A stretch of DNA of 64,000 bases, taken from the NCBI GenBank assembly GCA_050084515.1, contig CM114271.1, forward strand, positions 41,106,001-41,170,000. The letters run 5' to 3'. The notes beneath the pieces were generated by a model. The model did not search any database. It saw only the letters and a list, made by a program, of their open reading frames with translations, and had not been told where the DNA came from. Source of the DNA: Blasia pusilla. Taxonomy: Eukaryota. A program made the translations under genes and the position numbers. Positions 1 to 61,990 of the stretch are shown in pieces. Position 1 is the first letter of the stretch, and each line of letters opens with the position of its first letter.

Positions 1-186
1 GGATACCTTTGAGAGCTATGGTGTGAGATGGTGTAGAGAGAGATTGGATCTTACTTTAATTGGAGATATTTTAGTACTTCTTGTCTCGTTTTTTGGATGC
101 CATGAGTTAACATGGGATCATGCGTGCTTGTGTGTGTGTTCGGTGACAACGATGTATGTTGTGTAGCGATGTGTATACGTACGACA
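1..186 (+). repeat. 3' terminus (end of repeat A joined to repeat B, ending ...ACGACA) of a methyltransferase-family retroelement inserted into the RNase H of element A
   Basis: Bases 1-53 match the reverse complement of ~6777-6830, and 59-186 match 17436-17562. RNase H codons (HFKCYLFGTPFTII, minus strand) begin immediately after 186. Confidence 0.8.
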
Positions 187-4960: not shown

Positions 4961-6776
4961 TGTGGTGATGTGGTGGTCCCTCACGTGGAGACCCTTGGAA
5001 CCTCGCGCCACTCTGCGTAAAACCCCTAGAGCTACTCTCAGGTTCACCACCTCGCCTCTCAAAGTCTCGAACGGACGCCGTGATGACCCTCGTGCCCCTC
5101 TCACCTGATTACTCTCAACCTTGTGAGTAATCCCTTAATCAGTCATCCCAAACATGCGGCACTCGATCTACACTGTCCCTCCCGGATATGTGTAACTTGC
5201 GGCAACATGCGGCGTGGTGTGGCAAATCGACAAGGCTATCATCTCATCAACAACCTACCCTCAACTCCGGACATCCCACACTGGTCTATGTCCCCTAAAC
5301 CACATATATGAATGATGCTCTCAGCATCCACACAACCCAATATCCCCAAATAAACTACCAAAATCCCAGAATCCCTCACACGTGCAGGGTAAAGAACCAG
5401 AATGGGTAACCTGAACACATGTCGATGTCGCTCCTCAGCAACTACAAATCTCGACCCTAACTCGGTCGTGAAGACAACTCCTCCAATCAACAAGTCGTAC
5501 TCCTCTCATACTGTCGCTGCTCAACCTCCTCGATCTGCGGTGCAGGTCGAGCAATTTAGTGTGGCACGGGCGGCACGGAACAACTACAAACAATACGATA
5601 CTTGGAAATGGGGTGCGGAACTTGCCGGCATACCCTCCTCAATCAACAATTCACACGCTCTGCTCCTTAGTGAAGGAGTGGTTCCGCGATCGAGATAGTG
5701 CGGTGCGGCCACGAGCGGCACGACGCAGCAATCGGCGGCGCGTTGCCGCTACGGGCATTATGGCATGGTACTTGATCGTCATCGAGCAGCTACCAATCCC
5801 AACATATCAACATGAAATGAAAACTCAAACACCATAACCCGAGATCACCTGCCATCACTGGTTAGAGACGAAATTGCGATGACGGTGGCGGCCAAACCAA
5901 AGTACGTGGTGGCGGCATAAGTCACATAATCTACGATGGACGTGGAAGACCCTCCACTCCATAATGGCGGCAATGGAAACCAAAGGGTGGACAATGGCCG
6001 AATGCGGCTATGAGCAGCGCTAGGCAACAACAATGGCCGACCGTGGATAGTGAACGGTGGACGGTTAACGGTGACGGTTGATCGTTGCTGGTGACGACGG
6101 ACCGTTGATGGTGATGGTTGACCATCGATGGTGATAGTTGACCGTTGACCATTGACCATTGACGGCGGACCATTGATGGTGACTCTGATGGCGGCGACGC
6201 CGCCGCCAGCCCGGCGGCTGGTTTAGGGTTTGAAGAATTTAACCCTAAACATCGCCTAACAATGGTAGTTTCGCAAGATTGACTATAACATTTTGCTCGC
6301 AATTCCAAATTGCACACCATTTATTGCACAGCCTGCACAACTTGAGGATCTACAAGAGCATCAAAAAATATTTGTAATCTAACATTCCAGTAAAAACTCA
6401 CCGGGACTGTCGTAAACCCAAATGTCTCTTTCTCATACACATAATTTGGTAGCGCTTCCGCGTTGATTTCTCCCAAAAAAACTGTAAAACATGTGAGAAC
6501 ATAAATCAGCAAGCTACATGGTGCTCCTGAGAGCACGGGTATGGGGAAACCCACCTCCATACTCAATCCCTATCAAAAATTGGGCAGCGCTTCCATGCGC
6601 CACTCTTCCACACGAAAAATCGGCAAAAGAAACATCACAAGTAAGCAGCTCCTGCTCCGGTGAGCACTCCCATGAACCGCTAAATGGGGAATATGATCCC
6701 CAGCCTGCAAAACTAGTGAGTGATCAGTGAGCTCCCCCATGAAGCTCTCTCACTCACTCATTCTCTCTTTGTATAA

Positions 6777-7275
6777 TAAGATCCAATCTCTCTCTATACC
6801 ATCTCACACCATAGCTCTCAAAGGTGTGCACTCTCTCTCATGTCAAACCAAACCCACTCTCCTAATGAGAGGCTTAGGTTACACTCACAAGGCAAGGGAC
6901 CATAGTTCTTATGCCAAGAGGTTCAACAAAGATAGAATGAGCTCTCAAGCTCTCTATCTTGGACGTATACCCCCTTCCCTATCCCAAGCCCTCTCAACGG
7001 TAACCTATGCTCGTAGGTCACCTCCTGGCTCTTGACCTACTGTAGCGGGTCAAGGCCACTTCCCAAAGTGGAAAGTCAACTATCTCCAACATGGAAACTT
7101 ACCCTAAATAGTAAGTTTATCTATATGGCTCCAAATGAGCCGAAACGAAGGGGAAACGTGCTCTATCAAGTTTCCCGGAGCCTCAACAGGTCATCATCAA
7201 CGTCCTGGGCATGTCCTCCACTACTTGTGCACACACTCTGCTAGATCCCACTAATCTACACTAACAATCGTAACA
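6777..7275 (-). repeat. 5' terminal repeat A (subfamily 1) of element A
   Basis: Begins TG and is homologous to 1-53 and ~53060-53460. It is followed by unique leader sequence rather than repeat B or a recognisable PBS. Confidence 0.8.
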
Positions 7276-11995: not shown

Positions 11996-12048
11996 ATATC
12001 CTTAACGAATCCTTCTTTCTAGGTCTGTTTCTTTAGGGAACATTGCTC

Positions 12049-15238: not shown

Positions 15239-15240
15239 CT

Positions 15241-16246: not shown

Positions 16247-17423
16247 GCCATAGTCGTTATGTGTTGGTGATGGTCGAGCAATTCTTGAAGTGAATAGAGT
16301 TGGTTGCATTGTTTGACAAAGCGAGTGAGGGAGTAGCGTATGCCTTCCTAGATCGGGTGCTAAGTCATTACGGCGCACTAGCTGAGGTGTTGACAGACAA
16401 GGGTACAGAGTTTTGCCGGGAGTTTCAGGCCTTGTGTGATGAGGCGTTGATCGACCACAACACCACTTTGCGAGATCATCTTGAGGCGGATGGACTAGCG
16501 GAGAGGGTTGTGCAAACGGTGAAGAGAGGATTGTGCAAGTATGGCTTGCAGAAAGGTTACCTAGGATATTGGGACCTCCATTTTCCATGGTTGGCGATGG
16601 GATATAGATTCAGCAAGCATGCATCTTTAGCGTAGTTTTCACCGTACTTGCTACTCTATGGCCGAGAGCCAGATTTACGTACGGCCATTCGTCGAGATGT
16701 TGGTGAGGTGTTGAACCTTGATGACCCTGATGTATGGATGCGAGCATGTTCTCAGAGGGCTGAGTTGTTTCGGAGAGTGATGCCCATGGCATTTGAGAAC
16801 TTGGCAATTACGTAGCATCGAGATACATTGAGTTATGCGATTCTTCGAGGAGGTGGTTATCGACCTACAATCCGGAGGTTCCACCAGGGAGACTATGTCT
16901 ACTTGCAGAAAATGACATCCATGACATTTGATGTGATTGCAGGGCGCACTATATTGAGAGTGCGTGAGGTTTTGCCATCTTGTGTTCTTTTGTTGGAGGG
17001 ATGCGATGGTATGGTGTGGAAGGACCATGTGCGTAATTGTGCGCCATGTCACCTTCCTAATATGGATGATATCGTAGATCCGAGCTTAGCAGTAGTTACT
17101 ACATGCTTGCAATACATGTTGTGAGGTTCTGCCCCTCGTGGAGCCACTATGCTAGTTTATGATGGATGTTCGAAAGAATCGCATATGGCATGTTTGACGC
17201 CCACTTGTTACTAGGGTTCCTCAGGGACGATGGATGTTTACCAAATATACATAGAGTACGTAGTTCTAGATTTCGACTTGTCTCTATGACATGGATGACA
17301 AGAAGGTGACAAACGATGGGGTCACATGAGCACTCGAATTTTTTGCTCTTAGCGTCCGAGAGATGTATGTCATGGTAGGTAGGGATAGATGGTTATCTGG
17401 AGTTAGAGAGACCTAACCACCAG

Positions 17424-17562
17424 CTAAGGGGGCGATTGGAGATATTTCGGTACTTCTCGTCTCGTTGTTTGGATGCCATGAGTTAGCATGGGATCGTGTG
17501 TGTTTGTGTATATGTTTGGTGATAGCAATGTATGTTGTGTAGCGATGTGTATGCGCATGACA
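17424..17562 (+). repeat. PPT-like tract plus short 3' repeat B (subfamily 1) of element B
   Basis: CTAAGGGGGGCGA followed by ~126 bp matching 59-186, ending GACA. Unrelated AT-rich DNA follows. Confidence 0.8.
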
Positions 17563-37200: not shown

Positions 37201-37832
37201 TCTTTTCATGTCATTATAATTTCTCCTAAAACCAAAATAAGATTTCAACGAACATAAATGGGTTGGTGAATTATCACCAAAAAATATTTAGCTGGAAATT
37301 CATCTCTAGCATCGTTGATGTTAGTTTTTGCATGTTAAATTTCAAAATTGTGACATGCTTCCAAAGACTTCATGTCCCTCCATTTGTTGGAATTGCTACG
37401 AGTATCCAATTTTTTTCAAAAAATTTTCCACTATGATGAATATTCCTCCGAGAAAGTTTTCATATCGCAATCTATGTTCGAATATATTTTCTCAAAATTG
37501 CGCAACCCATTCTCCCCCATTTTTAGAACTTCATCGTGTCCCAAAACTACCTTTCTTCATTTCCATCTAACCTAGTGCATTGTATGGGGTCCAATCACTA
37601 GTGCTTATATGAATTTTAAAAAATTATTCACATACATCTTCAAATTGTATTCTTGTGTCGACCTTGATTATTTCACATATTTTATGAAGGTGAGTATAGG
37701 GAATTCAGTTCGGAAAAATTTCAACTAGGTACGAAATAAAATTTGGAACCCAATTTTATTACAATCAAGAAAAAGTTTTCCTATGTGTATTAAAATTACT
37801 TTGCCTCGTTACATTTCACTTTGGTGCCACTT
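37201..37832 (+). repeat. 632-bp direct duplication, copy 1
   Basis: Near-identical to 41467-42098. Confidence 0.95.
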
Positions 37833-39584
37833 AAGTTACATTTTACTACGGGTCGTTGCCTCATAGGCTCACGGTACCCGCCGTGCTCTCTGGGCACACC
37901 GGCCCGCTCTCGTGGTACTGGTGCTCGCTGTGGCACCTGTGGGGTCACCGTTGCTCGTGGACCCGTCGACTCTTGAGAAAATCCAGCGGTCACTACCTGC
38001 TCCTCACTCATGTTGAGCTCAATACGCTCAGAAAACTCAAAGATCACCTTTAATGTGGGCTTCGCTGTGTGAATCAGGACCGCATCTCGGACTCTCCTTC
38101 GTAGTTCTAGGTCCAGAACCCCGTACCAATACTGGACTGACTACGCCTCAGTCACTCTATACGTAGCAATGATTAGCCTCCTCATGTGTGTGAATGCCTC
38201 TCTTAGACTCTCACCCGATTGTCGCTGAAAATCCTGTAGACTCTTCAGCTTGTCGGTGCGTATGCCTTGGTACCTCTTCCCCAACTGTCGGAAGAACTCC
38301 ATTGTGGGGTTGAAGCTCGGTGGCCCTCTACCACCAAAGGTCTCTGCCACATCGCCTGTCTCACTGCCCTCCTCTCCATCTAGTCGTCGGGCTGATGGTG
38401 TGGGTCTCTATCCTCTCACAATCCCATAATATGCCTCGCGACCACTAGTGGACACATACCCTGGAGCCCAATACATCCTCCAGGCATCGATCTCTACTGA
38501 ATATAGTGATCGGAACTCCATGTAGTCATCCATTGGAGGACCCTCCAAGTGTTGGAACAACCCCTTCCTTGCCATGAAAGGGTTGAACCGTGTCGGGGTC
38601 CGTATCTCCTAGAAGTCGCACCACGCTTCGAACTCCTGGATAAAATCATCTAAGTCCATGGTGCCCACTGCACCCGAGAAACGACGCATGCCCCGATAGC
38701 CCATGTCGTCCATCTCCTGCCAAGTACTACTGTCTCTGTCTGCGATCTCGTCACTAGACCCAGTGTCTAGTGATGACGATCCAGCCACGGATGGATGTCG
38801 AGGTAGCTCCTCACTGGTAACCCCTCGGTATCTCACTCCACTCCATGTCACACCACTACCACTGCTAGCACTACCCCGTTCTTCCGAACCCTGGAAGAAC
38901 GCCGTGATGACAAACCCTGTCTCACTCGCTCAAGCACTCAGACTCACCAAGAGTCTCCCACACTCCTCACTAGCTCACCTATGCTAACATCAATCCCGTG
39001 ATGACATACCCGGCCTCACGCACACTCAACACTCGGGCTCACCATGAGCCTCCCAACTTACTTACTAACCTAGCAACACTCTCGGGTCATACATGCGACC
39101 CCTACGCGGCAACCGCCGTATATCCACCAACATGCTACACATGAAAAGAATCTACACTCGTCACCATCGCTGCACCCACCTAGCACCAACTACTACTCGA
39201 TACCCAGCACTCTCAATCACACACGACAAGTGGGGAAAAGGGACTCAAATGGGTAACCTGGTCACTCCCGCCAATCAACTGCTTCATCAACACTCACTCC
39301 TCCATGTGGCTCGGAAACCTCCGCAGCACAACCATCTCCCCTCACAACAAGTCGATCCTCCCGTCACCGGGTGCAGACCACTTGTCGACATCAACACACT
39401 AACTCTCCATCGTCAACCCATCGGTGCAGAGGGTACATCTTGACCCCAACCATGTAACTCTACTCAACCATGTCGTAGCTCTTACCACATATGTCGCTCA
39501 ACCTGATAGCCCGCCTATCACGTTCATCCTATGCACCACGTCCAAAGTTCCAAACACGTCGGCCTAGACTTGGTAAGCACGCTT

Positions 39585-40150
39585 GCCACGTCCATTCTTC
39601 AGACCCGCTCTCCCAACTTCACAGGCTCGCGGCTTTGTACTACGGCTACTCCTTCCTCGTGTGGGCGCGCCTGTACCTCCGCCGGCGGCGAAGAAGACAC
39701 ATATCTACAGTCGACTACACGAGGGACACATCTTCATCCCCCTGGCCATAGAGATGTATGGGGCTATGGGGGAGAGGTTCGACTTCGTTCTCACGGATCG
39801 CGCCCATCATCTCCACTCGAGAAATGGGTTATCCTTAGCTAGCTCGCGATTCAGACAGGCAGCTGGTCTCCATAGCGTTGCAGCGTGCCCAGGCTAATGG
39901 GATTTTGCGGCGGGCTCAGGCTGTGGGAGACGCCGGCGCTAGAGGCCCACTTAGTAGTAGTCATAGCTCTCTTGTTGTTGCTGATATTGTCTCTGCTGTT
40001 GGTGAGTTTCGTCGTTAAGGGGGGGAATGCCCCCTTCTTCCTTTGCTGGTCGTGTTGTGGCCTTCAGGTTTTGACTCTTTGAGTCCCCCTCTTTTGTACT
40101 TCCGATGGGTTTTCCATCACTCATTTTTATCGAAGTGCATCTTTGTTTTT
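39585..40150 (+). mobile_element. 3' fragment of a CRE-like non-LTR retrotransposon (restriction-like endonuclease C-terminus) within the leader of element C
   Basis: AAKKTHIY..FIPLAIEMYGAMG followed, after a frameshift, by QLVSIALQRAQANGIL. These match the KxxKY..FxPxxxExxG and SxxLQRxxA motifs of RLE elements. Confidence 0.7.
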
Positions 40151-41037
40151 CTTAACAGCACGGCTCCCTGTGGAGCTCCCTCTGAACCCACATACTTTGG
40201 AGCCATAATGGCTCTACATAGTGCCCTATGCAGGCTTGGACCTTGCCACTCCCGTATTCACTCTATCTCCCCCGCTTCTCGAGACGCAGCCCTTCTGCTC
40301 CCGACTCCCCTCACATTCACTCCTGCTCCCACACTCCCTTAGGCATGCGGTCCTATGCAGGACCTTCCTACTGCCTTATTCCTCTCGCACGCCGCCCTAT
40401 GCGGCTTTGTCCATACTCGCGCATACGGCTCCCTATGGCGCAGGGCCCCCCTCCTTAAATGCGCGAGGGCCCTATAGGCCACTCCCGCTCAATCCACCTT
40501 CTCCATGCTGCCTGACGTGGCCTTATATGTGCACGTAGTCCCTATGGAGGGACTCTCCCCTGTCTGACTACCTTTACTGGCGGCTGGCCGTCCTATGCGG
40601 CTAGCCCTGCCTCTATTCGCGTTACTCCCTAGCTTCCTCCCGACGCACCCGCTTCGATTGCGACTGTACTACTGATCGCGCACATATAATCTAAACCTAA
40701 CTCAAGACTAGCGGCTACAACCTAGCTCTCCTGGAGGCTACCATATTCTTGCCCTAACCTTCTCTCTTCCCATTTTCCAACCCTCACGCTCACCCATCCA
40801 TGACACTCTCGTGACCACCCGTGGTCACAACCTGCGTTGCACTCTATTCCTATCCCCCGTCAACCCACACCAAGGAGATCTAAGAAAAATGGACAGCGCT
40901 TCCGCGCACAACCTTCCGAACAGAAAACAACACACAAAACGTCACACACACGTCTCCAGGGGCTCCTCAACCGAGGCAACTCGCTTGCCTACTTGCAAAC
41001 AACGAATTCCCACAACCCCCTGACATCTTTCTCATAT

Positions 41038-41466
41038 AAAAATAAAGAGTAGTAAAAACGGCACACTTGGCCTAAAACTCCACTCCTCAATATACATCGA
41101 CATATCGAGCCTCGTCCACCCTGTGCTATCAAGGAATCCGGAGGCTAGCACCCTAGTCCTATCTCACACACATATAAGAGAGGTGCTCCAACGCCCAACA
41201 TGAGAAAGATGGCTTAGGAAAGCCACCTTCCTCTCTTATATAAGGTTGGGAAGAGCCAAAAGGCTCTTCCCCTAAAAATAACCCTCCCCTTGGTAACCTA
41301 CGCGCACAGGTTACCAGGGGCGGGTGATCTGGTCAACAAGTCACCCGGTTGTGAAAGACCTCAACATGAAAGTTCCTGACACAATGGACCTATCCTCAAC
41401 CTAGTCCCCTGGCTCTTACGCCCTATCCACGATAGATCTCAGCCTATCGGCTACTCAGATGTGACA
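41038..41466 (-). repeat. 5' terminal repeat A (subfamily 2) of element C
   Basis: Near-identical to 56554-57034 apart from small deletions, and contains a TATATAAG box. Confidence 0.9.
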
Positions 41467-42098
41467 TCTTTCATGTCATTATAATTTCTCTTAAAACCAA
41501 AATAAGATTTCAATGAACATAAATGGGTTGGTGAATTATCACCAAAAAATATTTAGCTGGAAATTCATCTCTAGCATCGTTGATGTTAGTTTTTTGCATG
41601 TTAAATTTCAAAATTGTGACATGCGTCCAAAGATTTCATGTCCCTCCATTTGTTGGAATTGCTACAAGTATCCAATTTTTTTCAAAAAATTTTCCACTAT
41701 GATGAATATTCCTCCGAGAAAGTTTTCATATCGCAATCTTTGTTCGAAAATATTTTCTCAAAATTGCGCAACCCATTCTCCCCCATTTTTAGAACTTCAT
41801 CGTGTCCCAAAACTACCTTTCTTCATTTTCATCTAACCTAGTGCATTGTATGGGGTCCAATCACTAGTGCTTATATGAATTTTAAAAAATTATTCACATA
41901 CATCTTCAAATTGTATTCTTGTGTCGACCTTGATTATTTCACATATTTTATGAAGGTGAGTATAGGGAATTCAGTTCGGAAAAATTTCAACTAGGTACGA
42001 AATAAAATTTGGAACCCAATTTTATTTCAATCAAGAAAAAGTTTTCCTATGTGTATTAAAATTACTTTGCCTTGTTACATTTCACTTTGGTGCCACTT
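41467..42098 (+). repeat. 632-bp direct duplication, copy 2
   Basis: Near-identical to 37201-37832 and abuts the TG terminus of element C. Confidence 0.95.
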
Positions 42099-44385: not shown

Positions 44386-44574
44386 GACGGTCCATGGACG
44401 TGTCTGCACTTTTTCTGTCCATGTCCGCCCTAGAAGCAGACTTGTCCATTTTTTATCAACCATGTTAATCTGGGTACGGGCGTCAATTTGCCCTTGAGCA
44501 ACTAAAATGTTCCCTCTTACTTATCTCTCCACTGCCAAACATGATCCATCTTGATCAGGAATCAAACTAAATCC

Positions 44575-47500
44575 CTTGGTATATCGTTGGTAAAAGTTCC
44601 TAATCCCATGAATATGCAAACTCAATTCACATTTGTAGGGCGCAAACACGTGAAATAGCCTCTACATTTGTCTCATAAACACTAAGGCCAATTGGGTATA
44701 TCGCATGACCGAAGTACTCAATCTAGTCATGGTAGAACTTGAACTTGCTTGGATGTAGCTTCAGACCATGTAAATGCAATCGTCGAAACATGTCCTCAAG
44801 ATGTCACTCATACTACTCAATCGTGGCGGTGAAGACTACAATGTCATCAATGTAACACCTAGCAAAATCTGTATTAATCCATAAACTGGACAAGATCCTA
44901 TTCATGATCCTTCGAAACTCCACTAGGCATTTTTCAACCAAAAATTAAGATTCGTCATTGTATAAAAAATCCTTTCTGACGATTGATGCCCCAGAATGTT
45001 ATTTTGTGCTTGTCCTCGACTCTGATAAGAAATTGATGGTATCTCGCTCAAAGATCTTTTTATGCCCAATAGCATATATCAAAGATCTCCTCAAGAATGG
45101 GCATATCATACCTATAGGACTTTGTGTGCCAATTGATAGGTCGGCTGTCTCCACACATCCCCCTATTAGTCCAATTGCCATACATATCCTTCTTGGCGCG
45201 CATGATTATGAATATGGTAGATGCATACTCCCCCATACAACATCTCCCATAGTCTTGCCTCAATCAAGTATTGGCTTTTCCTTTGAATCAAGGCTCTCTC
45301 AATGTCACAATACTGGTAGGATCGTCAAAGATCACTGTGTTGTTAGAAAACTCCATGCATATCCTTAGACCTTTTAGTGTACCCAAATCATGCATACTAA
45401 ATGCAAAACAAATCCCATGACTACTAAGGAACCTATGTATCTGATGTTGATCTCCTCATATCAACTTAAGCCCAATGTTCCCACTCTCCGTTATGACTAT
45501 GGTAGGACTATTTAGCCTGGATTTCGGTTGCTATGATGCAACCCCATCAAAAATAGTAGAACTCAACTGATCTCTCTGTAGCCCACTTAGATATCTCATC
45601 TTGTGATGATTCTCGTTGTGCAAGACCATAAACCACACCAATTGCCATCTCTCGGCATACCTGCATCACATCTCGGTCCATGGACATCTCACTTAATCAC
45701 CTCTCATTTTGCAATCTCCTTAGGTCTCGCCCCTAGCCACTGAATGTCCCCTCTTAATAGAAATGAGGCTAACAAGTGCTATAGAGGTGATCTCTCACAA
45801 CCTCATTCAACGCAGTTAGCTACTTTTAGGTTCCAAATCCATATTAAGAAATTCAGGTCCATCGCTTGATCTACAATATGACGTTTGAACGCCTCTAATA
45901 TTAATGGTATTACCTTCACTCTTGTAGGGAATCCCATTGCATGCTCTCTCTTATTGGTGTTCGGCTTCACCAACTATTACACCTAGTCATCCCAAACCAA
46001 GTCTAGACCAATCTCCTTATATGCATAGGAAGTAGGAAAACTCACTAATTTGGAAAATATTGCCTAGGCCATGGCAATCCTATTCACCATAATCAACAAA
46101 GGTCAATCGTCGCGCCTCAGTACTTGGATTGATATCCAAGATCCAAAGTGGAATCCACCAACAAATGGCAGGGCCATTCCTCTTTTGCATATGCTCATCT
46201 TAGAACCTCGTGTGACATCAAGTTAGTCCATCAAAGATGCAATTGGTGTGCTCTTGATCCTACACGCATCCAAGAACAATGTTTGGTCGATCCATGCACG
46301 CACTTGATATACATTCATCACCATACATGACAAGAATTGCTCAAAATTGATATAATCTTTTAGAATAGAAGCTAGAGAAAGAGACTGGTGCTCGTGCAAA
46401 TGTTGCAAGATCCTCAACATCTCCCAAAATATCTAGGATCATCCAAACCACCAGCTCATCCAATACTCGCTCGCCATGCTATGGCCAACCTACAATGACC
46501 AAAATAATGGACAATGACCTAAGTCTTGAGCTCTCGACATGGAAATGTCCTTCGATACAAAAACTTTGATAACCGTGCAGACTTGACGCGGATAATAAGT
46601 CAGGAAAATAAAGTCATACGTGTACTACATGTTGGAGTAAGACATGCCTTCCAAGCTCATCATGCTCCACATACAAATATTGATGTTCGCACACTCATGC
46701 TTGTAACACAGTAGCCAACCCAATAATCAGCCATTCAAAGAGATCCAACACTCTTATATCCTCTAGAATGCACCACAAAATCAGTGTTGTATCTCAGGGG
46801 AAGAACACAACACTCCCTGCTACCTCAGGCACCTCTAACCTATGTCTATGCAAAGGTCTCACTCCACACCATCTACACATGCTCATCGATTAATCGACAA
46901 AGCTCCTCACTTGAGCCCGGTAAAGATACCTCTCCTCCAAAAAATGATTCGGCTACAATAACACTCCTCTTGAGAGGATATTGGTCAAAATTTTGTCCCT
47001 TGTATGGATATAAACCTCAATCAAATCTCCAAGCCAATTAACGGTGTTACTGAATGTAGCTAGAGTTGCCACCCTTATATCTCTTGGTTGTTGCGCGATC
47101 AATCCACTTGTGAATTGCACTGGCATCGAGCTCAGTTACCCATCAATTCTCTACCCTCCTAATCTATAGGAATCAAACTCCTCCAAAAAATCAAGGGTTA
47201 ATTCCATCAGATACAACAATGCTCCACCAACCAAGATGTCATAGGACTCGCCATTGGTCACTATTGCCTTGGCTCGCACCACAGACTCATGAGTTGGATG
47301 TTGTGGTTGAATCCTTACCACGACCTCATGGTGGGTAGTAAATTATACCATACGGGCTCCACCTAGGAAACATATGTATCCTAAATGGGCAACGCTTAAC
47401 ATCAGCCCGCGTCAACCCGAAGCCTATAAATGTTGCCTTTCCCAAAATCAAGGATGTTGTGCTTAAACCCAACAAGACACAATATAGACAATAGACTTTA

Positions 47501-48810
47501 CTTCCTTGGAACCAAAGGCAAGATCTCTCAACTATTATTAAAAAAAAAACACATTGAGAAACCATGACATACTCTATTGTGGGTCTAGGGGGCTTCTTTG
47601 CCATCCTAGCAGCCGCACCGTACCATGAATATGAGGCTCCAAGGGTAGATCCACCACTTCCTTTGCAACTACCTCTAAAATTGAGGCAACAACACCATCT
47701 CCACACTTACATAGTATATATAGCAGCCAGCCAAAAGACCTCGATGGGTGTGACTCCCAATGCCATAACATCGCGAGTACAAGACCACAAGGCACGATAT
47801 GTAACAGTGGCTGCTCCCAACAACACGCACATTTGACTTGGGCTCATTCTAAACATCATATGAGCAAAAGGAGTCATCACAATCACTCATCCCATTTCCC
47901 ATCTTGCCTACAAACCAACAACACACAATCTTCAAGAACTCTAATCAAGACCCATTGATGGAGTCCTCATCGCCTCATACAAAGTAAATGAACGAGGGAG
48001 CTTGGTCTATTTCCTTGTTTTTTCTTGTTGTCCATCCAACTCTATGGTTTCTTCATGTTAAAAATGGTAGTTTCCTCCATCAGTGCAATCCCGCACATCC
48101 AACCAAGATCCTCTATATCCCTAATTTCTCCATACGAAGTGGATGCAACAAACTTGTTATTATGTAATGTTAATGCCATTGCAACAATCTGTTGCTATAA
48201 CTTCTCTATCTTAGCAGCCATCCCAACCTCACGCCCTTGACTTATCTAGGTGGTGGATCTCGACCTCCTCCACAAGAAAATCCACCTCCCCTACAAGCAT
48301 ATTTACCTCCCCGTCCATCTACGAGACCATGTGGGGCACAACCTTTGGCCCCGTCTAGATTTCCAATTCCTTCTAGTACCCTCTCAACTTTTCAAGCACT
48401 AGATCTGCACATAGCTAAGGATGTAAATTGAAACACCTATCCCATGTATGGCCATAGATCTAATAATAATCGTCATAGAAAACTTCTGGTAGGGGCACAT
48501 CTACTCCCAACAACTTCGACACACATCCACTACCATGACAAATGCAATCAAGCTAATCCGCATACGCCCAAAAAATAACTCTTGGTTAGTTTTGACCCGC
48601 ATCCAATGACATAGGTCCTAGAAGCACTAGCTCACGGTAAACCCCTTACACTCTAGGTTCCATACTCCTCTCCCGAGCTACACATTGTTGTATATGCGTT
48701 GTGGGTGCCCCTTGTGGTACCTCTTTGGAATAACCAAAAGCAAAAACACTCTCTTTTGCCATGTTACTCTCTATGCAATCAACCAACTCAAACACATCTC
48801 CGAGTAGTAA
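44575..48810 (-). mobile_element. Element E: strongly decayed copy (gag-PR-MTase-RT)
   Basis: Colinear homology with element A. RT at 44580-45260 (MCGDSRPINWHT..MPILEEIFD); MTase at ~45800-46770 (IRVLDLFEW, VIVGWP*HG, WEMLRILQHLHEHQS, VRAWIDQTLFLDA). Confidence 0.85.
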
Positions 48811-49614: not shown

Positions 49615-50869
49615 CACTGTAAGAAATGTATGGTTTTTATGACCAAAATTTAAATGACTACCTGAAAAAATAACTCAAATTCTGACTTAAATTATTCAGT
49701 CATTAATTTAAGGGTCATATTACTCATCTAGTCATTTGCCCACGTGCAACCCAAGAAGTTAGCAATACTCTTTAGTCTTAAACAAGTAATGTCCCTCACT
49801 TGTCTAGTGTTTGTGAGTCTAGAATAAAAGCTTATATTTCTAAGGATTTCATCTTCCAATCATATGATATTTCTCACTTATCTTGGGATATAATTTTTCT
49901 TAGGCATTCTATTGTAGCAAAGTATTGATGCACTCTTTCATTAAGACCCTAACTCTTTCCAACATACATCGTGCATATGTGGCCATATCTAGAAATGTAA
50001 GAATGCCCACATGGCATTCAATACCACTTCAAAATTCTATGTACTTTATCGAAAAAAAGTAATATATTTTAATCATAATTTCCATTTCCATTTGGTGGGG
50101 GAATGTCCATATTTCTCATTCTATTTTCACCTTCATTTTAAAATAAGATATAAGAATTTTTGTATGATTTAGTGACTTTAAGTTGGTTTCAGTGATATGT
50201 CAATAAATGAAAAAGACGAATTGCAGTAATGACCATTGCCTTTGAGTGAAAATGGGAGAGTCTTCTTTGTATTTTCTTGTTCATCTTGAAGCAGCATTAG
50301 TTTCCACCATTGGATTGAGCTAAAACTTGGAGGAGTAAGTTTTGGAAAGTTACTCTTTTATTTCATTGGATTAGACCTCTAATTTATATTTCCATGATGA
50401 AACCATAATTATGAGATCACATTACGGGTTTACGATTTTTTATTCCCTCCCTACATGGTTATTTCAATTCTTATTTTCGGCCTTGGATCCTAATACCAAA
50501 GTGCATGTTGTGACAAAGTGGCATGATCTATGAACTCCTAGTTGGAGAGAAGAGTCAAAAAAGAAGAAATTTGTCTCAACACGCACATTGCACATAGGTC
50601 TCAAGAACCATACCAAAAAGAAAATCTTAAAATGACCACCCAAAGAGAGAACTAAAAATCATAGACCTTAAATTTGGTTTTCCAATTCTTGTTTCATCAT
50701 GAAAGAGCAAATAGAAGATCTATACTGTTAAAGTGGGAGAGGGCCTTCACAACATCAAATCCTCCAAATTTTAGCTCAATCCAATGGTGGGGATGAATGA
50801 TGTTTCAAGATAAATATGAAAATGCTAAAAACACTTAGAACGTTTCTATTTAAAGTCCTCCTCTTTCTC

Positions 50870-51232
50870 TTTGATAAGGCTATAAACTTTAGGCAAAACT
50901 CTGTAACCCGATCTGTAAACGCCTTAGTTGCTGTGCCATAGTGATTTAACACTTGATCCAGGAAATAAAATGCAAACGTAAGCCTTGACTCACAAGGAAT
51001 GCAACCAACTCTACCCACTTTGAGAAGTAATCAAACATCACCTATACATAACAATTATGACGCTCTCTCAAAGGTAAAGATCCTGAATCCAAACTCCATC
51101 CATAGCCTAAACCCATGATTGGTAGTAGATACATTTGAGGGATGGGAATATTGAATGATGCTTGGATTTGATCACACACCATGCTTCAAGCAACAAATTT
51201 TTATATATCAATGGGCATGCCTTGTCACCAAT
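50870..51232 (-). pseudogene. Inverted continuation of the same integrase
   Basis: The reverse complement begins ATTGGTGACAAGGCATG (WWQGM-like) and continues with MVCDQIQASFN..PIMGLGYGWSLD..FLDQVLNHYG..TDRVTEF. Confidence 0.8.
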
Positions 51233-53798
51233 CACTAGAAGAAATCCTTAATTTTATGACTAGCTTGTATGACTCATATGAATCATATATGCTAGTCATT
51301 GACGGTGATATATGAATTTTCAGTAATTGGAGTGGTCAGTAGCCTTCACTCACCAAATGTCTCTATATTATATTTCTAACTCGGAATGGACAATGAAATC
51401 TCTTCACAAAATTTGAATGACTAGCATGGTTTGCTAACATGACATGAAAATATGAATCATAATAACATGATTGGCATACTGTGTAGATGATGTGGCAAGT
51501 GATTTGATGACATGGACTCAATGGAGAAAAAAAATCGTCCCTTATGTCCCATTCTCTATATGTCTATCCATCTTCCATCCATTATTTCATTCCATCCCCC
51601 ATCTGTCCATGATCTCCGTCTCCATCCATCCATGTGTCCCACCTTGCATCCATCATCTTTATCTTTCAAAATATGTCTGAGGCAAGATTCAAACTTGCAC
51701 TATTAGGCCTACAATGGAGTCCTCTATCACTAGCCGGCACATTATTATATGTACATGCGTAGCAAATTTAAATCAATATATAAATATCATTTTCCCTTTT
51801 GCATATTTATACTTTTAAAATTCATTTTGTAGTATTTTCGTATATTCACATTATTTTATTTTTAACTCTTGAAGGACCTAAAACTCTATACCTAGAATAT
51901 TAAATAAGTGATTTTAAAATATTATGTAAAAAATATTAATATATATAATAAGAATTAAATATTTTATGTCATATAATATGATCTTTTATTAGATCATATT
52001 AAGTCTAAAAAAATGGAATGGTTAAAAAATTTTAATTATTGGATTTTTTTTAAAAACCATCTTGTACCAAAAAAGAAAAATGGATTCAATTATTGGTTTG
52101 TTGGTGGGTGGATATTTCTTGATTCTAAAATTTAAATTTTGAAAATGATGATGTCATAAGATGAATATGAAAATACAAACTATACTTGAAAATTTTTGCC
52201 TTAAGTCCCGCTTTCCTCTTTCTCCCTTCTTTTTTATCTTTCTCTCCCAAAAAGAGTGCAAAAATCATGCAAGTCACCAGATAGTGATAGATCTAAACTA
52301 GTGTTTGAGTAAATACTAAGTGAAATTTTTTTATTTGAATAGATACTAAGTAGTCATAGATCTAGACTTGCGTTAATGATATGGATTAAGAGAATCAGAC
52401 TGGCTATGGGGGTTATATGAGCAGTCGGTCTTTTTACTCTTAATGTCATGGAGGAATGTGCAATTTGGAATATTTTGGTACATGATTGTCTTTGTATTCA
52501 CGTTCCATGAGTGACTATGGTATCTTGTGCCTATTTTTTTGTATTTGGTCACAAAAATATATGTTTTGTATCAATGTACATTCATATAAGAACTATCATG
52601 TCATTATAGTAGATCAACTAGGATCCGCATGTTTCCTTAGATGAGGTCAGAGAATACTCTAAAAGCGCGATTCCATGGAATAACTCAAACTGGCGACCTT
52701 GGAAATTACATTAGATCAACCACATCTTACGGTTCATATATTTTTGAAATGGTCTGAATCCTTGGTTTATAATCGGTGTCCTTAGTTTTTTCCGGGATCC
52801 TTGTATTTCTTACGACCATTAATTTTTGGCGCAGGAAAGTCGCGACGTCCTCGTGCCCTCTAAAACCTTCCAGGCCTGGTTGCTATTTGAAAAAATCCAG
52901 GTTTTTTTTTATGGTGTAGAGTAAGAGAATGACCTGATTGGGGAGGACCGGCGCCATTCCGCAAGTTCTGGCTGAACCTGTCGGCCGTTATGGTTGGATA
53001 CAGTTTCTTGGGGTCGCGTGCGACCCCAAGAAACTGTGCCATAGAATTGACCCCTTAGAAGGTGGAGGATGACTTGTTGAGGATTAGGGTAATATGAGAT
53101 AACACATTTACCATTAATTTTGGCTCATTTGGAGCCATATTCAGGTAAGTTCCTATTAGAAACATAATTGACTTCTCATTTTAGGAAGTGGCCATTGACT
53201 CTCTATTGAAGGTCAAGAGTCAAAGAGATAACCTGCAATCATAATTTAACAAGGAGAGAATTTGGGGATAGGGAAGGGTTATACCCAAGGAGAGAGAACT
53301 TGGGAGCTCGTTCTCTTTATGTTGAACCTCTTTTCATTAGGCAGCAAAGCAGTGGCCCTCCTTGCCTTATGAATAATCCAAACCTCTCACTAGGAGAGTT
53401 GGTTTGGTTTGACATAAGAGAGATGGAGAGTGTGGAAATTTTGAGATCATATGATTTATGGGATATATTTTGGTATACGACTGACTCTATGTTCAGATGC
53501 AATAAATAAGTATGATATCTTGTGTTTATATATTCATATTTGATGAAAGCGAGGTATATCTTGTAGCGATGTGTATGTGCATCACAAACATCTCCTATCT
53601 AGAAGAGATGCTTGCCTATACTTGTTTGAATTGCTAGGAAGAGCTTGTGATTCTACATGATCATCCTCGAAAGCTAGCAAATTCCATGAGTCCCAAAGAG
53701 TCTGTTTGAAACCTCATAGACCATATATGTGAGGCATTATTATGGTCGCTCAAAGCTCATTCTAGTACTAGTCATAAAACCACTATTTTCTTCTAGTG
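51233..53798. mobile_element. Non-autonomous CACTA-type element (12-bp TIR CACTAGAAGAAA)
   Basis: CACTAGAAGAAA at 51233 and TTTCTTCTAGTG ending 53798, both with a subterminal TTTTATGACTAG. The flanking trinucleotides (aat/cga) do not match. Confidence 0.65.
53060..53586 (+). repeat. Diverged solo A+B repeat unit (subfamily 1)
   Basis: 53060-53460 aligns by eye with the reverse complement of ~6800-7200. It ends GTAGCGATGTGTATGTGCATCACA, like repeat B. Confidence 0.75.
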
Positions 53799-55460: not shown

Positions 55461-56416
55461 ATCATCCCCATTTTTTCATTTCTTCCTCCTCCCGCTTCCA
55501 CTCCCTCCCCCCTTTTTGCCCTGCGCGTCAGCCCTTCCTCTGGTTATAAAGTGTGGGCCTCACTTTTTGTAATCCATGCCCGTTGACATATGTGTCCTAA
55601 GGATGAACTTGTCTTTTTTTGTGTAATCAACTTGTCCGTCAGTCCCCTGTCTCCATACTCTTGATTGGTTCTCCCATCCTCTTTCATTCCATCTCAAAAT
55701 TACCTTGGATACTAATATATGCAATCATGTATAAATATTGCACTTTATAGGACATATGTAAATTACACTTGTAAGTAATAAAATTGTCTTCTAGTAGGTT
55801 GAGAGTAATGATAGTCTTGTAATTATCTATGAGTGGAAGATTTCAAAATGAAGAGTCTTTTCCAAGGATAAAATTGAAGGATGCGTACACTAGGAAGGAC
55901 TCAAAAATTAGGTCATGATCGCATGTCAAAGGATGATCCACCTTAGTGATCGAGCATTAATACAAAACTTAGGTAACCTATTTGCGAGACTAGGGAGACG
56001 GCAGAGTGATCCAAAAAGGAAGATCAAGATATGCAAAAATCTTGAGATCCATATCAAATCATTTTAATGGCAGCAAAGAGTATCCCCCTGAGCATACTTA
56101 AGGAGATCGGCCTTCATTCTCATAGGTCAAGGATGACTTGAGTGTATAAGTTTCCCTTAGTTTAGGATCCATTTTGGACTAGATAGAAGAACTTGCTATT
56201 TCTTATAAGTCCTCTATTTTAGGCACAGTTGATTTCACGTTATGAAGGATGTCTCTGGACTTGCTAGAGAGCATTAGGATTAGAGAGTTTATCTATGTGC
56301 ATATGTCATCGAGGAGAAGGTTTGAAAGAATGAAAGAATATATCACAAGGAGGGATAAAAGTGGGCATGAAAGTGTAAGTTAAGATGGGCGGTTAGCCAT
56401 GAGACACGTTGAACAT

Positions 56417-57185
56417 TGTCGTGCGCATACATATCGCTACACAACATACATCGCTAGTCACATCTACACCACACAACGCCGATCTTCCCCACACACGGGT
56501 CGATCCACACATGTACAAAAATCAACTCATACATATACATGGAGATCACACAACAAAAATAAAGAGTAGTAAAAATGGCACACCCGGCCTAAAACTCCAC
56601 TCCTCAATCTACATCGACATATCGAGCCTCGTCCACCCTGTGCTATCAAGGCATCCGGACGCTATCACTCTAGTCCTATCTCACACACATACAAGAGAGG
56701 TGCTCCAATAGCCCAACATGAGAAAGATGGCTTAGGAAAGCCACCTTCCTCTCTTATATAGGGTTGGGAAGAGCCAAAAGGCTCTTCCCCTAAAAATAGC
56801 CCTCCCCTTGGTAACCTACGCGCACAGGTTACCAGGGGCGGGTGACCTGGTCAACAAGTCACCCGGCTGTGAAAGACCTCAACATGAAAGTTGACAGAAA
56901 TGACGTTCTTGACACAATGGACCTATCCTCAACCTCGTCCGACACCGTGGGACAAAGTTACACTCAAGATAGTCCGCTAGCTCCTATGCCCTATCCACGA
57001 TAGATCTCGGCCTATCGGCTACTCAGATGTGACAGCTGTCGTGCGCATACATGTCGCTACACAACATACATCGCTGGTCACATCTACACCACATAACACC
57101 GATCTTCCCCACATACGGGTCGATCCACACATGTACAAAAATTAACTCATGCATATACATGGAGATCACACAATCGCCCCCCTAG
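56417..57185 (-). repeat. Split direct repeats: PPT-like 57174-57185, B1 57037-57173, gc, A2 56554-57034, B2 56417-56553
   Basis: B1 and B2 are 137-bp near-identical direct repeats. A2 matches the 5' end of element C. The B1|A2 junction reads GACAGCTGTC. Confidence 0.9.
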
Positions 57186-57250: not shown

Positions 57251-57410
57251 CTATACACCTCTCGGACACATCCATCGTCCTGTGGGAACCACATCAAGAG
57301 GGGGGATCAAACATGACATATGCCACCCTTGAGAACAACCATCACATACCAATATGGTGGCTGCACCCCTCGCAGATCCGCACAACATACACCTCAATCC
57401 TGCAGGTACC
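57251..57410 (-). pseudogene. PHD finger at the integrase C-terminus
   Basis: CMLCGSARGAATILVCDGCSQGWHMSCLIPPLDVVPTGRWMCPR fits the C4HC3 PHD pattern; the last Cys is lost or frameshifted. Confidence 0.92.
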
Positions 57411-57920
57411 ACTGCCAAGCTCGGATCCACCGTCCCATCTACGTTCAAAAGATGACATGGTGCACAATTGCGCACATGATCCTTCCAAACCATACCATCC
57501 CGTCCCTCCAACATGAGGACTCCGGTCGGTAATACCTCGCGCACACGTAGGATCGTCCGCCCTGAGTGACATATAGCGTCGTGGGTGCCGCCTGCTATAA
57601 ATACACGTAATCTCCAAGATGAAACCTCATAATCCCTGGACGATAACCTCCTCCACGAATGGTCGCGTACCTCAATGTATCTCTATGATGGGCAATAGCT
57701 AAGTTCTCAAGGCCATAGGCATTACTCTACGAAAAACCTCCGCCCTCTGAGAACATGCTTGTACCCACATATCTGGATCATCAAGATCTAACACCTCCGC
57801 CATGTCATGTCGAATTGCTGCTGGTAAATCAGGCTCTCTCCCAAAGAGCAAAAAGTATGGTGAAAATGATGCCAAGGATGCCTGCCGACTAAAACGATAA
57901 CCCATAGCCAACCATGGCAA

Positions 57921-58562
57921 CTATAGGTCCCACTCCCTCAACTCTCCCCGCTGCAAGCCATACTTGCGCAATCCTCTCTTCACCGTCTGTACCACTCTCT
58001 CCGCCAACCCATCCGCCTTAGGATGATCTCTGGACGTGGTGCAGTGATCTATCAGCGCCTGATCATACAAGGCCTGAAACTCTCCCCTGAACTCGATACC
58101 CTGGTCAGTCAACACCTTCGTCGGTGCACCAAAGTGACTAAGCACACGATCTAGAAACGTATAAGTTGTTCCCTTGCTCGCCTTTTCTGGTAGTGCCACC
58201 AACTCTATCCACTTGGAGAAATGCTCCACCATGACCAACACGTACATATGATGACGCCCCATCAATGGCAAAGGTCCCGCAAAGTCTAAACTCCACCGAT
58301 AACTTAAACCCATAATCGGAAAAGGATGTAATTGCGGAGTGGGAGCATTGAAGGATGCTCGCACTCTGTCACATACCATACATCTGGCCACAAATTGCTG
58401 TATCCCAGTATGCATGCCGCGCCACCAATACTGAACATGGATTAAGCTGTAACTACGCTTTACTCCAAAATGTCCCAACTCCTCATGGGCATGTCGCACT
58501 ACACGTGCTTGCTCGGAAGGATGAGGTACCACTCGTATCCTACCATCTTCCCATACCCGCAA
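57921..58562 (-). pseudogene. DDE (rve) integrase core of element D
   Basis: HEELGH..CMVC zinc finger, WSLDFAGPLP, VLTDQGIEF, HPKADGLAERVVQTVK. Confidence 0.95.
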
Positions 58563-60984
58563 AATGTGAGTCCCCTCCCACCTGAACCTCCTGGCTCTCT
58601 GAAGGATCCGATCCCGCTACCTAGCACTCAATGTACTCGCTATGACGCGAGTGCGCAAGAACTCCACAACCTCCACGTCGTCATGGATATCACGACCACC
58701 TGTCGCCTCCTCACTAACCTCCGGATCGAAAGACTCATCATCCAACCCCACCACTGGAGTCATCACCTGTGGTTGACCTGCCATAGTCAACCAACAAAGA
58801 TAGGCAGATACATGCCAATCGGGCACCATCTCCTCATCACTCTCTCCGTGCCATTGAGCTCCTCTGCCGTCTCTCTGACTCGAACATGGGTTATGACTAA
58901 ACCCATCCGCATCTTGGTTCAGCCAACCTGGCCTATGAAACACCTCAAACTCATACTCCTGTAGTAATAGAGCCCACCTGGCAAGCTTTCCCGTAAGCTT
59001 GTCGGACTCCATCAACCACCTCAACGGCTGATGATCAATGATAAGTGTGAAAGGGTTTCCGAATAAATAGCATCTGAAATGTGCCATGGCCACACTCCAG
59101 CCAACCACTCTCCCTTGTAGGAGATGTACTTCGCCTCTGCAATGTTGTTCGATCGGCTTGCGTAAGCCACAACGAACTCCCTCTCCTCGTCATCCCTCTG
59201 AGTAAGCAGTGCTCCTAGACCCAACATGCTCCAATCTGTATGTAAATGGAATGGGCGACCCCTGACCGGTCTCTGTAAAATTGGCGAGGACGTCAACCTG
59301 TCCTTGAGCTCCTGAAATGCTCGCTCATGATCATCTCCCCACAACCAAACCTGATCAAGTCTCGTCAACAAGGTCAAAGACTTTGCGATCGCACTAAAAC
59401 TCTTGACATACCGTCGATAGAAGTTCGCCAGTCCAAGAAATGCTCAGACTCGACTCACATCTGTAGGGTGTGGAATCTACGCAATAGCCTCTACCTTCGT
59501 CTGCTGAACGCCTAACCTACTCGGGTATATGGTGTGTCCCAAATACTCAATTTTCTCCTGAAAGAATCTGCACTTGCCTGGATGTAACTTCAGTCCATGT
59601 AACTGCAATCTCCGAAATACCTCCTCCACGTGTATCATGCTCCTCAACCGTGGAACTGAAGATAAGAATATCATCTATGTAACATTGTACAAACTCCAAG
59701 CCAGCTAGAATTCTATCCATCACTCTCTAAAACTCTGCATGCGCGTTCTTCAACCCAAATGGTAAGAACCGCCATTGATACAAGCAATTTCTCCCGAACC
59801 AATCTATCCCCTAGAATGCTGTCTTCTCCCTGTCCTCCAACCTAATAGGAAGGTGATGATAGCCAACACGGAGATCTAAAGTACTGAAGATCTTCGCATG
59901 CCCTACTGCATCAAAGATCTCCTCAGGAGTAGGCATGGCGTACCGATGTGACCTCGTCTATCAGTTGATAGGACGGTAATCTCCACACATCCGCCTATCT
60001 GTCTAATTGCCATACATATCCTTCTTCGCCGGCATGACTGTGGCAGATGCATACTCCCCATGTGATAACTCCACAAGTCCTGCCTCCAACAAGTCCTGAC
60101 TCTTGCTCTGAATCAAGGCTCGCTCCATATCCGAATACATGTAGGGACGACCAAAGATCGGCGTATCACTAGCCAACTCAATCCGTATCCTGGGACCCTT
60201 CAGCGTACCCAAGTCTCTCATACTGAAGGAAAAACAACTGACATGCCCTCTCAAAAACCTATGAGCTCGCCGTCGCTCTCCTCCTATCAACTTGAGACCT
60301 ATCACAGGCTCCCAAGTCTCCATCGCGACCTCATTCTGAGAGGACCCAACCTCCGGCTTTGGTTGCTATATAGCAACCCTAGCCACCTCCACAAGAACCA
60401 CTCCACTTTAACCTCCTACACCATGCTCCGCATCTGAAAAATGAACATGTTCTACTCTAGCCGCCTTCGCACTCTGCTCAAACGACGTCCCAGGAAGTCC
60501 ATGGGTGCCTATCTCTCCTCGTCTCGCCCCCAGCCAATGCCTGTATAGACCCTGTACGCAATGGTCCAACTCGTGGACATGACGACATAGATGACACTCG
60601 CATCCATCTTTGCTCAGCCATACCTAGGCTGACTATCCATGTGAGACAGTTGAGGTCCATCGCCTGTCCCAACACCTGTCTCCAGGATGCCTCAGTCATC
60701 CCTGGCACCGCCGTAGTATCGGTAGCGAACCCCATGGCGCGCTCGCGCTCATCTACTGTAGGCTCCTCCAATGCGCCGGTCACCTCCACGTGGTGGAAGG
60801 CAAGGCAAGGACAAGGAAGAAACGTAAAATTGCGTAAGATGGAGGCAAGTAAGAGGAATGAGAAAGAAGGGGAAGGTGGGGCCTACATGGATAAGTCCTT
60901 CCAAAGGACGGACGTATGCCCGCGAACACGGACTTTGTCCATATGCAACCTTGTAGATTAAGGAAACCTATATATCATGGGGCA

Positions 60985-61285: not shown

Positions 61286-61299
61286 GCAATGCAAAAGTA

Positions 61300-61990
61300 T
61301 CTCATCCCTCACCCCTCTCCATAGGTCTTGCTCTAGCATTTCGTGCCATACGTGGACAATATGGGCCTCTATGACCCCCTCAATGTCTCTCACCAATCAA
61401 TGTAGGGGAGTAAATGCCTCTTGCAAATTCTTTCCTATCGGCCTATGAAAGTCGTGTATACTCCATTACTTCTTTCTCTCTATCCCTAGATAAAGAAAGT
61501 AACTACAGGGTTGAACCTCACACAAATTCTACTAGACGACACGCACAACTGTTCTAGTCTAAGTCATCCCTCCAAGACAAGTGGTAGAGGAAATACCCTC
61601 CCCTAGCTCCTCCTCATCTGAAAGCGGCTCAATCCATGACACATAGTGTGGATCATAATAGAGTTTCTAGCCTCAATCTTATGCATCAATCTGATGGAAA
61701 ATTGATGGTAATTGTTAATGGATGCCCCCTCTAGGTGTTGGAACATACTGATTCATATGCATGTTGTGAAAAGATTGAAGTCTCTGGAGTTCCCACCCCT
61801 CTATGAGTCACACAAACTCCTTAACTTCACTATGAAGTCATGCAACTTAAAGGTATCCACAAACCCTTAAAACCTACCAAGTGCTTTGCCGTGGTCGTCC
61901 ATCTCATACGTTCAAGTGATGACACCACTCAATGTGTGAGATGATGCACTAACAAACTCCCCCTCTAAGACCTCTCTCTTGTCCATAGAA
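61300..61990 (-). pseudogene. Decayed gag fragment of the same family
   Basis: 61780-61915 is colinear with 4790-4935 (LHDFIV..SLCDS). Confidence 0.7.

Follow-up and report, generated by a model that had tools for sequence, protein, structure and literature searches.

Element D is a decayed retrotransposon in a 64,000-nucleotide stretch of Blasia pusilla DNA (GCA_050084515.1, contig CM114271.1, positions 41,106,001 to 41,170,000 of the forward strand; hereafter the window, whose own numbering is used throughout). Its 3' end carries a palindrome, GACA-GC-TGTC, between two of its repeats, and the layout of these repeats suggests, as far as sequence can tell, insertion from a circular rather than a linear DNA copy. 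Judged from its coding content, D is a minus-strand Ty3/gypsy-type element of the DNMT/PHD clade. The pol order is reverse transcriptase (RT), RNase H, and integrase with an H2C2 zinc finger and DDE core (minus strand, 60293->57714), followed by a PHD finger. A DNMT domain inside the Gypsy-type pol is found in a related copy, E2 (PF00145, E 3.6e-7, open reading frame (ORF) 1695-1961; tblastn 2306->1224, minus strand), whereas D retains only a remnant of it. The DNMT sequences of the window (1224-2306 and 60625-60780, both minus) match a homologous protein, P0064, and Marchantia MARPO_0024s0079 at 52% identity. The C-terminal PHD finger of the integrase (57251-57682, minus, in D; 16255-17205, plus, in another copy, E1) stands where chromoviruses have a chromodomain, and may provide a different mode of chromatin targeting.

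Of 879 candidates, 108 were relatives of the integrase ORF at E <= 0.001. Identity is 74-79% for the best matches, of which those with a name come from the liverworts Calypogeia and Riccia; Marchantia and Sphagnum give weaker or partial matches, and proteins of Klebsormidium nitens share 50-53% identity with the ORF. A PHD finger (PF00628) is listed in 79 of these relatives and a DNMT domain (PF00145) in five. Judged by such protein similarities, the family is a relative of the Gypsy elements with DNMT known from Klebsormidium. A scan that covered 183 of the 185 window ORFs of at least 75 amino acids, all but two that are antisense to the integrase, detected no tyrosine recombinase (PF00589), and the domain is listed for none of the 108 homologues.

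The repeats at the 3' end were first labelled A and B on the plus strand. We use U for the reverse complement of B and Dn for the reverse complement of A, the sense strand of D being the minus strand. Repeats A1 (56417-56553) and A2 (57037-57173) are 94.9% identical over 137 bp. B1 (481 bp, 56554-57034) recurs at 41038-41466 with ~85% identity and no adjacent A. Read in sense, the 3' end of D runs from the PHD ORF through a polypurine tract (PPT) to Dn1 (A2), GC, U2 (B1), Dn2 (A1), and then unrelated DNA.

A palindrome at the repeat junction

Positions 57025-57046 read ...gatgtGACAGCTGTCgtgcg..., with GACA at 57031-57034, GC at 57035-57036, and TGTC at 57037-57040. The palindrome is perfect over 10 bp, the next bases outward (t/g) being unpaired, and sits exactly between B1 and A2. 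Although GACAGCTGTC occurs only once within the 64-kb window, palindromy as such is not rare, with 84 perfect 10-bp palindromes seen against ~62 expected. The non-random feature of this palindrome is its placement at the repeat junction.

Both halves of the palindrome recur at the outer ends of family members. TGTCAC... is the first sequence of copy E5, adjoining unrelated DNA at 41466, and ...ACGACA closes Dn, with unrelated DNA adjoining at 56417, 186, and 17562. A diverged ...ATCACA closes the copy at 53586. TG...CA termini are therefore present, as U starts with TGTCAC or TGTTAC and Dn ends in ..ACGACA, ..ATGACA, or ..ATCACA; across copies, the genomic termini are always a U start (TG) and a Dn end (CA). 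The GC spacer is missing from these outer flanks: E5 reads ..AAAGA/TGTCAC, and the sequence after Dn2 of D reads GACA/ATGTTC. The original prediction, made from the letters of the window alone, had described a perfect 10-bp palindrome at B1/A2 composed of the two outer termini of the element. The sequence at 57031-57040 bears out the former point, and the start of E5 and the end of Dn the latter.

Architecture across related copies

Self-comparison of the window revealed a nest of decayed relatives of D. A census by sensitive BLAST and nhmmer profiles of the window gave six Dn, four U, and one U fragment (Table 1). The fragment (56131-56353, plus; nhmmer E 4.4e-7) is decayed, U-like, and in opposite orientation, just beyond the 3' terminus of D, which apparently inserted into or beside an older relative.

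The 3' ends in the window are of three types: Dn-GC-U-Dn, U-Dn, and PPT-Dn. In D and E1 the internal regions are only ~73% identical, yet the PPT abuts Dn in both. The E1 join reads AAGGGGGCGAT/TGGAGATAT, and the exact 11-mer GGGGGCGATTG has just two sites in the window, the PPT/Dn joins of D and of E1 (17428-17438). The 3' ends of E0 and of the c53 copy are U-Dn followed by unrelated DNA. Positions 5-58 of E0 are 94% identical to the U end of E2. At the 5' side, both ends present in the window (E5 at 41466, E2 at 7275) pass from U to the internal region with no Dn in between. For E2 the boundary is sharply defined, as the homology of the E1 RT to D extends to 7277. The U of E2 is of a second type (X-type), and its match to the B-type U is a weak 36 bp (75%, E 0.006), so the two are positional equivalents whose homology is unproven.

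The joins between the end of U and the start of Dn had been expected to be heterogeneous; this found no support, as all three in the window look plain and blunt. In D this join lies at 56553/56554 (TTTTTGT/TGTGTG), and within 1-2 nt it equals the predicted cDNA ends joined together (TTTTTAT before the primer-binding site (PBS) of E5, plus TGTGTG after GCGAT).

A target site duplication (TSD) would have marked the A2 part as an independent insertion. None was seen around Dn1 (flanks GCGAT / GCTGT), U2-Dn2 (ACAGC / ATGTT), or Dn1-GC-U2 (GCGAT / TGTGT). A chromovirus at 8877-16248, taken as a control for duplications at element ends, shows TCCAT/GCCAT. Because no sub-unit is bounded by a TSD, the Dn1/U2/Dn2 structure is not an independent insertion. 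Other parts of the first annotation needed correction. No B2 follows A2, where the plus strand continues with the complement of the PPT and then with PHD/integrase coding sequence, and the labels A2-B2, like the description of an element B as A...B, were wrong in detail. The A...B-A-B scheme fails as written and holds on the minus (sense) strand once the letters are swapped (U = A, Dn = B).

The 5' fragment of E5 is flanked by AT-rich 630-bp direct repeats that are 98% identical (37201-37832 and 41467-42098), and GACATCTTTC occurs to either side of the E5 U, at 41023-41032 and at 41465-41474. This arrangement could be the product of a rearrangement through microhomology with the PBS motif.

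Table 1. Features of element D and of its relatives in the window
Feature	Position	Strand	Remarks
Palindrome GACA-GC-TGTC	57031..57040	.	Dn end (..GACA) + 2-bp spacer + U start (TGTC..); proposed att-like site
GC spacer	57035..57036	.	Not at outer ends of integrated copies
PPT-like tract AGGGGGGCGA(T)	57183->57174	-	Abuts Dn1
Dn1 (A2), 137 bp	57037..57173	-	Directly after PPT; sense start (T)TGTGTGATC, end GCGCACGACA
U2 (B1)	56554..57034	-	Sense start TGTCACATCTGAG, end CTTTATTTTTGT; Dn2 boundary uncertain by 1-2 nt
TATA-like TATATAAG in U2	56760->56753	-	
Putative transcript start / self-primer CCATCTTTCTCATG in U2	56730->56717	-	
Dn2 (A1)	56417..56553	-	Outer 3' terminus of D; ends ..GCGCACGACA at 56417 beside unrelated DNA
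PHD finger, C-terminal end of pol/integrase frame	57251..57682	-	PF00628, E 4.1e-10
Integrase: H2C2 zinc finger + DDE core (rve)	57921..58616	-	PF17921, 6.9e-15; PF00665, 8e-14
RNase H + RT, decayed, stop-interrupted	58617..60293	-	RT_RNaseH families; tblastn P0064 residues 290-784 at 60293->58818
C-5 cytosine methyltransferase remnant, upstream of RT	60625..60780	-	tblastn P0064 residues 1106-1157; P0107 residues 996-1048
E1		+	RT from 7277; chromovirus interrupts at 8877-16248; integrase-PHD to 17237
E1 3' end	17426..17562	+	PPT-like AAGGGGGCGA(T), Dn 17437-17562 ending GCGCATGACA, unrelated AT-rich DNA; no U-Dn beyond
E5 U1, 5' terminus	41038/41040..41466	-	TGTCACATCTGAG at 41466 beside unrelated DNA; U only, no Dn after
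E5 putative self-priming PBS, ATGAGAAAGATG	41035->41024	-	12/12 complement of U positions 256-267; starts 2-4 nt after U
E5 5' internal region	37851..41023	-	Collinear with E2 4091-5013 and D 61289-61887; truncated ~37833-37850
E2 U1 (X-type U)	6772..7275	-	Start TGTTACGATTG at 7275 cuts RT of E1; internal sequence follows without Dn
E2 putative self-priming PBS, CAAAGAGAGAATGAG	6757..6771	-	15 nt, immediately follows U; complements U positions 335-349 at 14 of 15
E0 3' end	1..186	+	U end 1-60, Dn 61-186 ending ACGTACGACA; inserted in RNase H of E2
c52/c53, decayed Dn'...U...Dn'' array	52468..53586	+	Dn' 52468-52591; U-like to 53460; Dn'' 53461-53586

Putative self-priming signals

The sequence directly after U is complementary to a segment within U in both copies that have a 5' end. 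The partner of the E5 PBS is CATCTTTCTCAT, which starts ~30 nt after TATATAAG; when the 40 nt downstream of U were shuffled, the 12/12 score was reached by 3 of 1000 shuffles. In E2 the partner is CTCATTCTATCTTTG, 28 nt after GTATACG, and its score of 14/15 was reached by 1 of 1000 shuffles in a mismatch-tolerant test. The complementary U segments lie 27-30 nt downstream of the TATA-like motif in both copies. The E5 and E2 pairs differ in sequence, and complementarity and position are nevertheless kept between the two subfamilies. A Tf1-type self-primer with its PBS would look like this. Minimum free energy (MFE) folds, which are illustrative only, also pair the U segment with the PBS in E5 and E2.

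Proposed layout and integration cycle

Taken together, the copies give the composite layout 5'-U-PBS-internal-PPT-Dn-GC-U-Dn-3'. Since the PBS adjoins the end of U1 and the PPT adjoins the start of Dn1, the long terminal repeats (LTRs) made by reverse transcription should be Dn-GC-U, and the expected cDNA is [Dn-GC-U]-PBS-internal-PPT-[Dn-GC-U]. Such a functional repeat, B-gc-A on the plus strand, was part of the original prediction, and it gains support from the PPT/Dn joins of D and E1 and from the PBS complementarity after U in E5 and E2. Canonical identical LTRs at both ends were not found; compared with the genomic termini, the unit that PPT and PBS delimit is permuted. Since U (TG...) opens the genomic copies and Dn (...CA) closes them, whereas the cDNA LTR would be Dn-GC-U, the integrated form would therefore be a circular permutation, opened at the palindrome of the 5' LTR.

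The cycle that we propose has six steps. Transcription would begin ~30 nt past the TATA-like motif in U1 (step 1), and the first 12-15 nt of the RNA would fold back onto the PBS that adjoins U1, priming minus-strand DNA in the manner of Tf1 (step 2). Plus-strand DNA would begin at the PPT abutting Dn1, giving cDNA with Dn-GC-U as its LTRs (step 3). The cDNA ends, the start of Dn and the end of U, would then join into a circle, creating a U-end/Dn-start join like that at 56553/56554 (step 4). The DDE integrase would nick after CA on both strands of the palindrome in the 5' LTR, GACA^GC^TGTC, to give linear DNA whose CA-3'OH ends are recessed behind 5' overhangs of 2 nt, the form that strand transfer normally uses (step 5). 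The integrated copy would start with TGTCAC (U), end with GACA (Dn), and retain one Dn-GC-U inside (step 6). Copies that end in PPT-Dn and flanking DNA, such as E1, might come from cutting at both palindromes, from a one-LTR circle, or from later recombination between Dn1 and Dn2. Features of the copies appear to support steps 1-3; circle formation, integrase cleavage, and integration (steps 4-6) we infer.

We lean toward this account, in which the palindrome is probably the internal Dn/U junction of a Ty3/gypsy-type element with split direct repeats that integrates by way of an integrase-cut circular cDNA. A wider proposal is more tentative and, to our minds, may well prove wrong: that a streptophyte clade of DDE-integrase retrotransposons normally integrates from circular cDNA, its integrase double-nicking a templated CA-GC-TG palindrome in the LTR. 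The tandem-LTR circle would then be the main route, convergent with the split-direct-repeat strategy of tyrosine-recombinase elements and combined with self-priming.

Alternative explanations

The sequence supports the structural part of the original prediction, to which the PBS evidence adds weight; the circle and integrase mechanism is plausible but unproven. Several observations weigh against the cycle set out above. When junctions were tabulated within the window, as the original prediction had suggested, a single clean Dn-GC-U junction emerged, that of D, and the 2-bp spacer, which had been predicted to be invariant, is thus seen once. The only other Dn/U candidate (52591-52830, in the c52/c53 array) is decayed and not reliably alignable, its spacing being 2, 7, or ~220 bp with no recognisable CA-NN-TG. 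No copy is complete or has both ends in the window, and the layout is pieced together from six decayed copies of two subfamilies. For E2, an exact-match test of the complementarity was not significant (longest exact complement 7 nt, reached by 691 of 2000 shuffles). The transcript start was guessed from TATA spacing, and the MFE folds are not independent of the complementarity score, because the RNA start was chosen from the complementarity. A two-LTR circle has two palindromes, only one of which yields a replicating copy when cut, and the alternative product, beginning U-Dn-GC-U-PBS..., was not seen at the two 5' ends. Nor is it proven that the element depends on end-joined circles, in retroviruses a dead end.

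Some of the evidence points to a related account, in which the split-direct-repeat layout is real and inherited but the integrase does not cleave a circle, the palindrome being a footprint of joined termini. Linear cDNA might be cut at its two internal palindromes and the terminal U-Dn rebuilt by template switching or recombination, or host repair or recombination might insert circles or concatemers. The window offers architecture only, with no intermediate observed; the PPT-Dn-flank end of E1 fits cutting of linear DNA at both palindromes; and the 98% identical 630-bp repeats around E5, together with GACATCTTTC, hint at an event not due to integrase, and the E5 5' junction could be a rearrangement instead of an integration. 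DIRS-1 cDNA, moreover, is reported to be mostly linear and single-stranded, contrary to the older circle model (PMC7192593). Nevertheless, cutting at both palindromes would give U-internal-PPT-Dn, which could not replicate because it would have no 3' copy of R or of the promoter half of U, and a route creating the U-end/Dn-start join would still be needed. That join matches blunt ligation of the predicted cDNA ends, and the canonical TG/CA termini, like the retention of an H2C2/DDE integrase, speak for integrase as the enzyme that forms the ends. We regard this account as rather unlikely, yet as one to be taken seriously.

It is improbable that D is a canonical element with a U-Dn LTR (618 bp, TG...CA), in which A2-GC would be a copy-specific extra partial LTR left by aberrant reverse transcription or two-LTR-circle recombination and the palindrome an accident. 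B1 and A1, in reverse complement, are bounded by TGTC...GACA like an ordinary LTR, and tandem LTR fragments are known products of rearrangement. The PPT, however, abuts Dn rather than U in two diverged elements, and the two independent 5' ends have U only, with the break exactly at the U/Dn boundary and PBS-like complementarity adjoining. A related family has in addition been described with DIRS-like repeats (PMC5890265). A chance abutment of a short-LTR element (LTR = Dn) and a solo U-Dn LTR of another copy, by nested or adjacent insertion, would suit the dense nest of elements in the window and the 3' end of E1, where PPT-Dn is followed by unrelated DNA as for a Dn-only LTR. This would leave the absence of a TSD at Dn1, U2-Dn2, and Dn1-GC-U2 unaccounted for. 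In both E5 and E2, the U at the 5' end runs straight into homologous internal sequence and is therefore part of one element with it; that two ends should meet exactly, separated by 2 bp of self-complementary sequence, would also have to be coincidence. We hold such an abutment to be very improbable.

Comparison with known systems

Textbook LTR retrotransposons and retroviruses integrate linear cDNA, and their circles are regarded as dead ends. Split direct repeats, for their part, are regarded as a hallmark of tyrosine-recombinase elements, and the retroviral circle junction usually has 4 nt between CA and TG. The closest described element is KnitGypsy-Dnmt3 of Klebsormidium nitens, for which a figure legend gives DIRS-type repeats, A-coding-B-A-B, along with Gypsy domains (de Mendoza et al. 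2018, Fig. 4c, PMC5890265). Going by that legend, the window element resembles it in its Gypsy-type pol, its DDE integrase with DNMT, and its A-coding-B-A-B repeats, and the K. nitens protein KFL_009030040 carries RVT, RNaseH, DNMT, and IN domains. The two differ in host lineage, the best matches of the window being to liverworts (74-79%), and in the PHD finger of the window element. The homologue P0064 has the order RT-RNase H-DNMT-integrase, whereas the window element has DNMT upstream of RT. The consulted part of the Klebsormidium paper contains no junction sequence, PBS/PPT analysis, or mechanism (PMC5890265). Among the papers that literature searches gave, none, judged by title and abstract, describes a DDE-integrase element with split direct repeats beyond this 2018 legend. 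Because the architecture has already been mentioned once, for Klebsormidium, the new content lies in the anatomy of the junction, in the signal for self-priming, and in the occurrence of the family in DNA of liverwort type. The family adds to the Gypsy-type elements whose split repeats are DIRS-like, a kind that has hardly been described.

DIRS, PAT, and Ngaro elements are described as having split direct repeats (A1-internal-B1-A2-B2), outer sequences joined internally, and a tyrosine recombinase (PMC4157794, PMC7192593). The window element shares with them split direct repeats whose joined termini are internal (a composite of D, E5, E2, E0, and E1). In contrast, they encode a tyrosine recombinase and no DDE integrase, whereas the window element has an H2C2/DDE integrase, TG...CA termini, no tyrosine recombinase domain among those ORFs scanned, and a junction of the CA-NN-TG palindromic type typical of integrase substrates.

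The integrase of prototype foamy virus is reported to cut the palindromic LTR-LTR junction of two-LTR circles, giving processed linear DNA (PMC1180852), and HIV-1 integrase to cleave the two-LTR palindromic junction in vitro (PMC1905944). There, as here, two DNA ends meet in a palindromic CA...TG, which in those viruses integrase can cut to regenerate processed linear ends. The retroviral junction, however, is made anew by ligation of cDNA ends as a side product, whereas the palindrome of the window is templated inside every LTR and inherited. Its spacer is 2 nt, and integration would always have to use it. It is not itself a ligation junction: the positions of PPT and PBS put the ends of the cDNA at the start of Dn and at the end of U, and the circle-type join would be 56553/56554.

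Self-priming is reported for the Ty3/gypsy elements Tf1, sushi, and Tcn1 (Neumann et al. 2019, PMC6317226). In elements of this type about the first 11 nt of the transcript pair with a PBS adjoining the LTR. As in these, the 5' end of the transcript would be complementary to an LTR-adjacent PBS, and no tRNA-type PBS is obvious, although a tRNA may yet be the primer; in the window element the signal is putative, from complementarity in two copies. Those elements, unlike this one, have ordinary LTRs and chromodomains.

If the proposed cycle is right, the family would show a DDE integrase acting in nature on an att-like site within the element, with an LTR permuted relative to the genomic ends. 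This would bear on how integrases recognize and cut DNA and on the origin of DIRS-like architectures. It would also bear on LTR-finding software, which may miss or mis-annotate such elements.

Other elements in the window

E4 (44478-48557) and an integrase fragment (51237->50876) have no recognisable termini. A 577-bp stretch (50259-50835), 66% similar to its own reverse complement, adjoins this integrase fragment, which is of the same family (50875-51237, minus). The chromovirus at 8877-16248, nested in the integrase of E1, is nearly intact, with gag, protease, RT, RNase H, and integrase, the last with SH3_Tf2-1 and a chromodomain (minus strand). Its LTRs are 1 kb long, ~93% identical, and bounded by TGTCGCG...CGCGACA. 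An AT-rich stretch contains a fragment of a MULE transposase (25725-25961, minus; PF10551, E 1.4e-5, below the curated cut-off).

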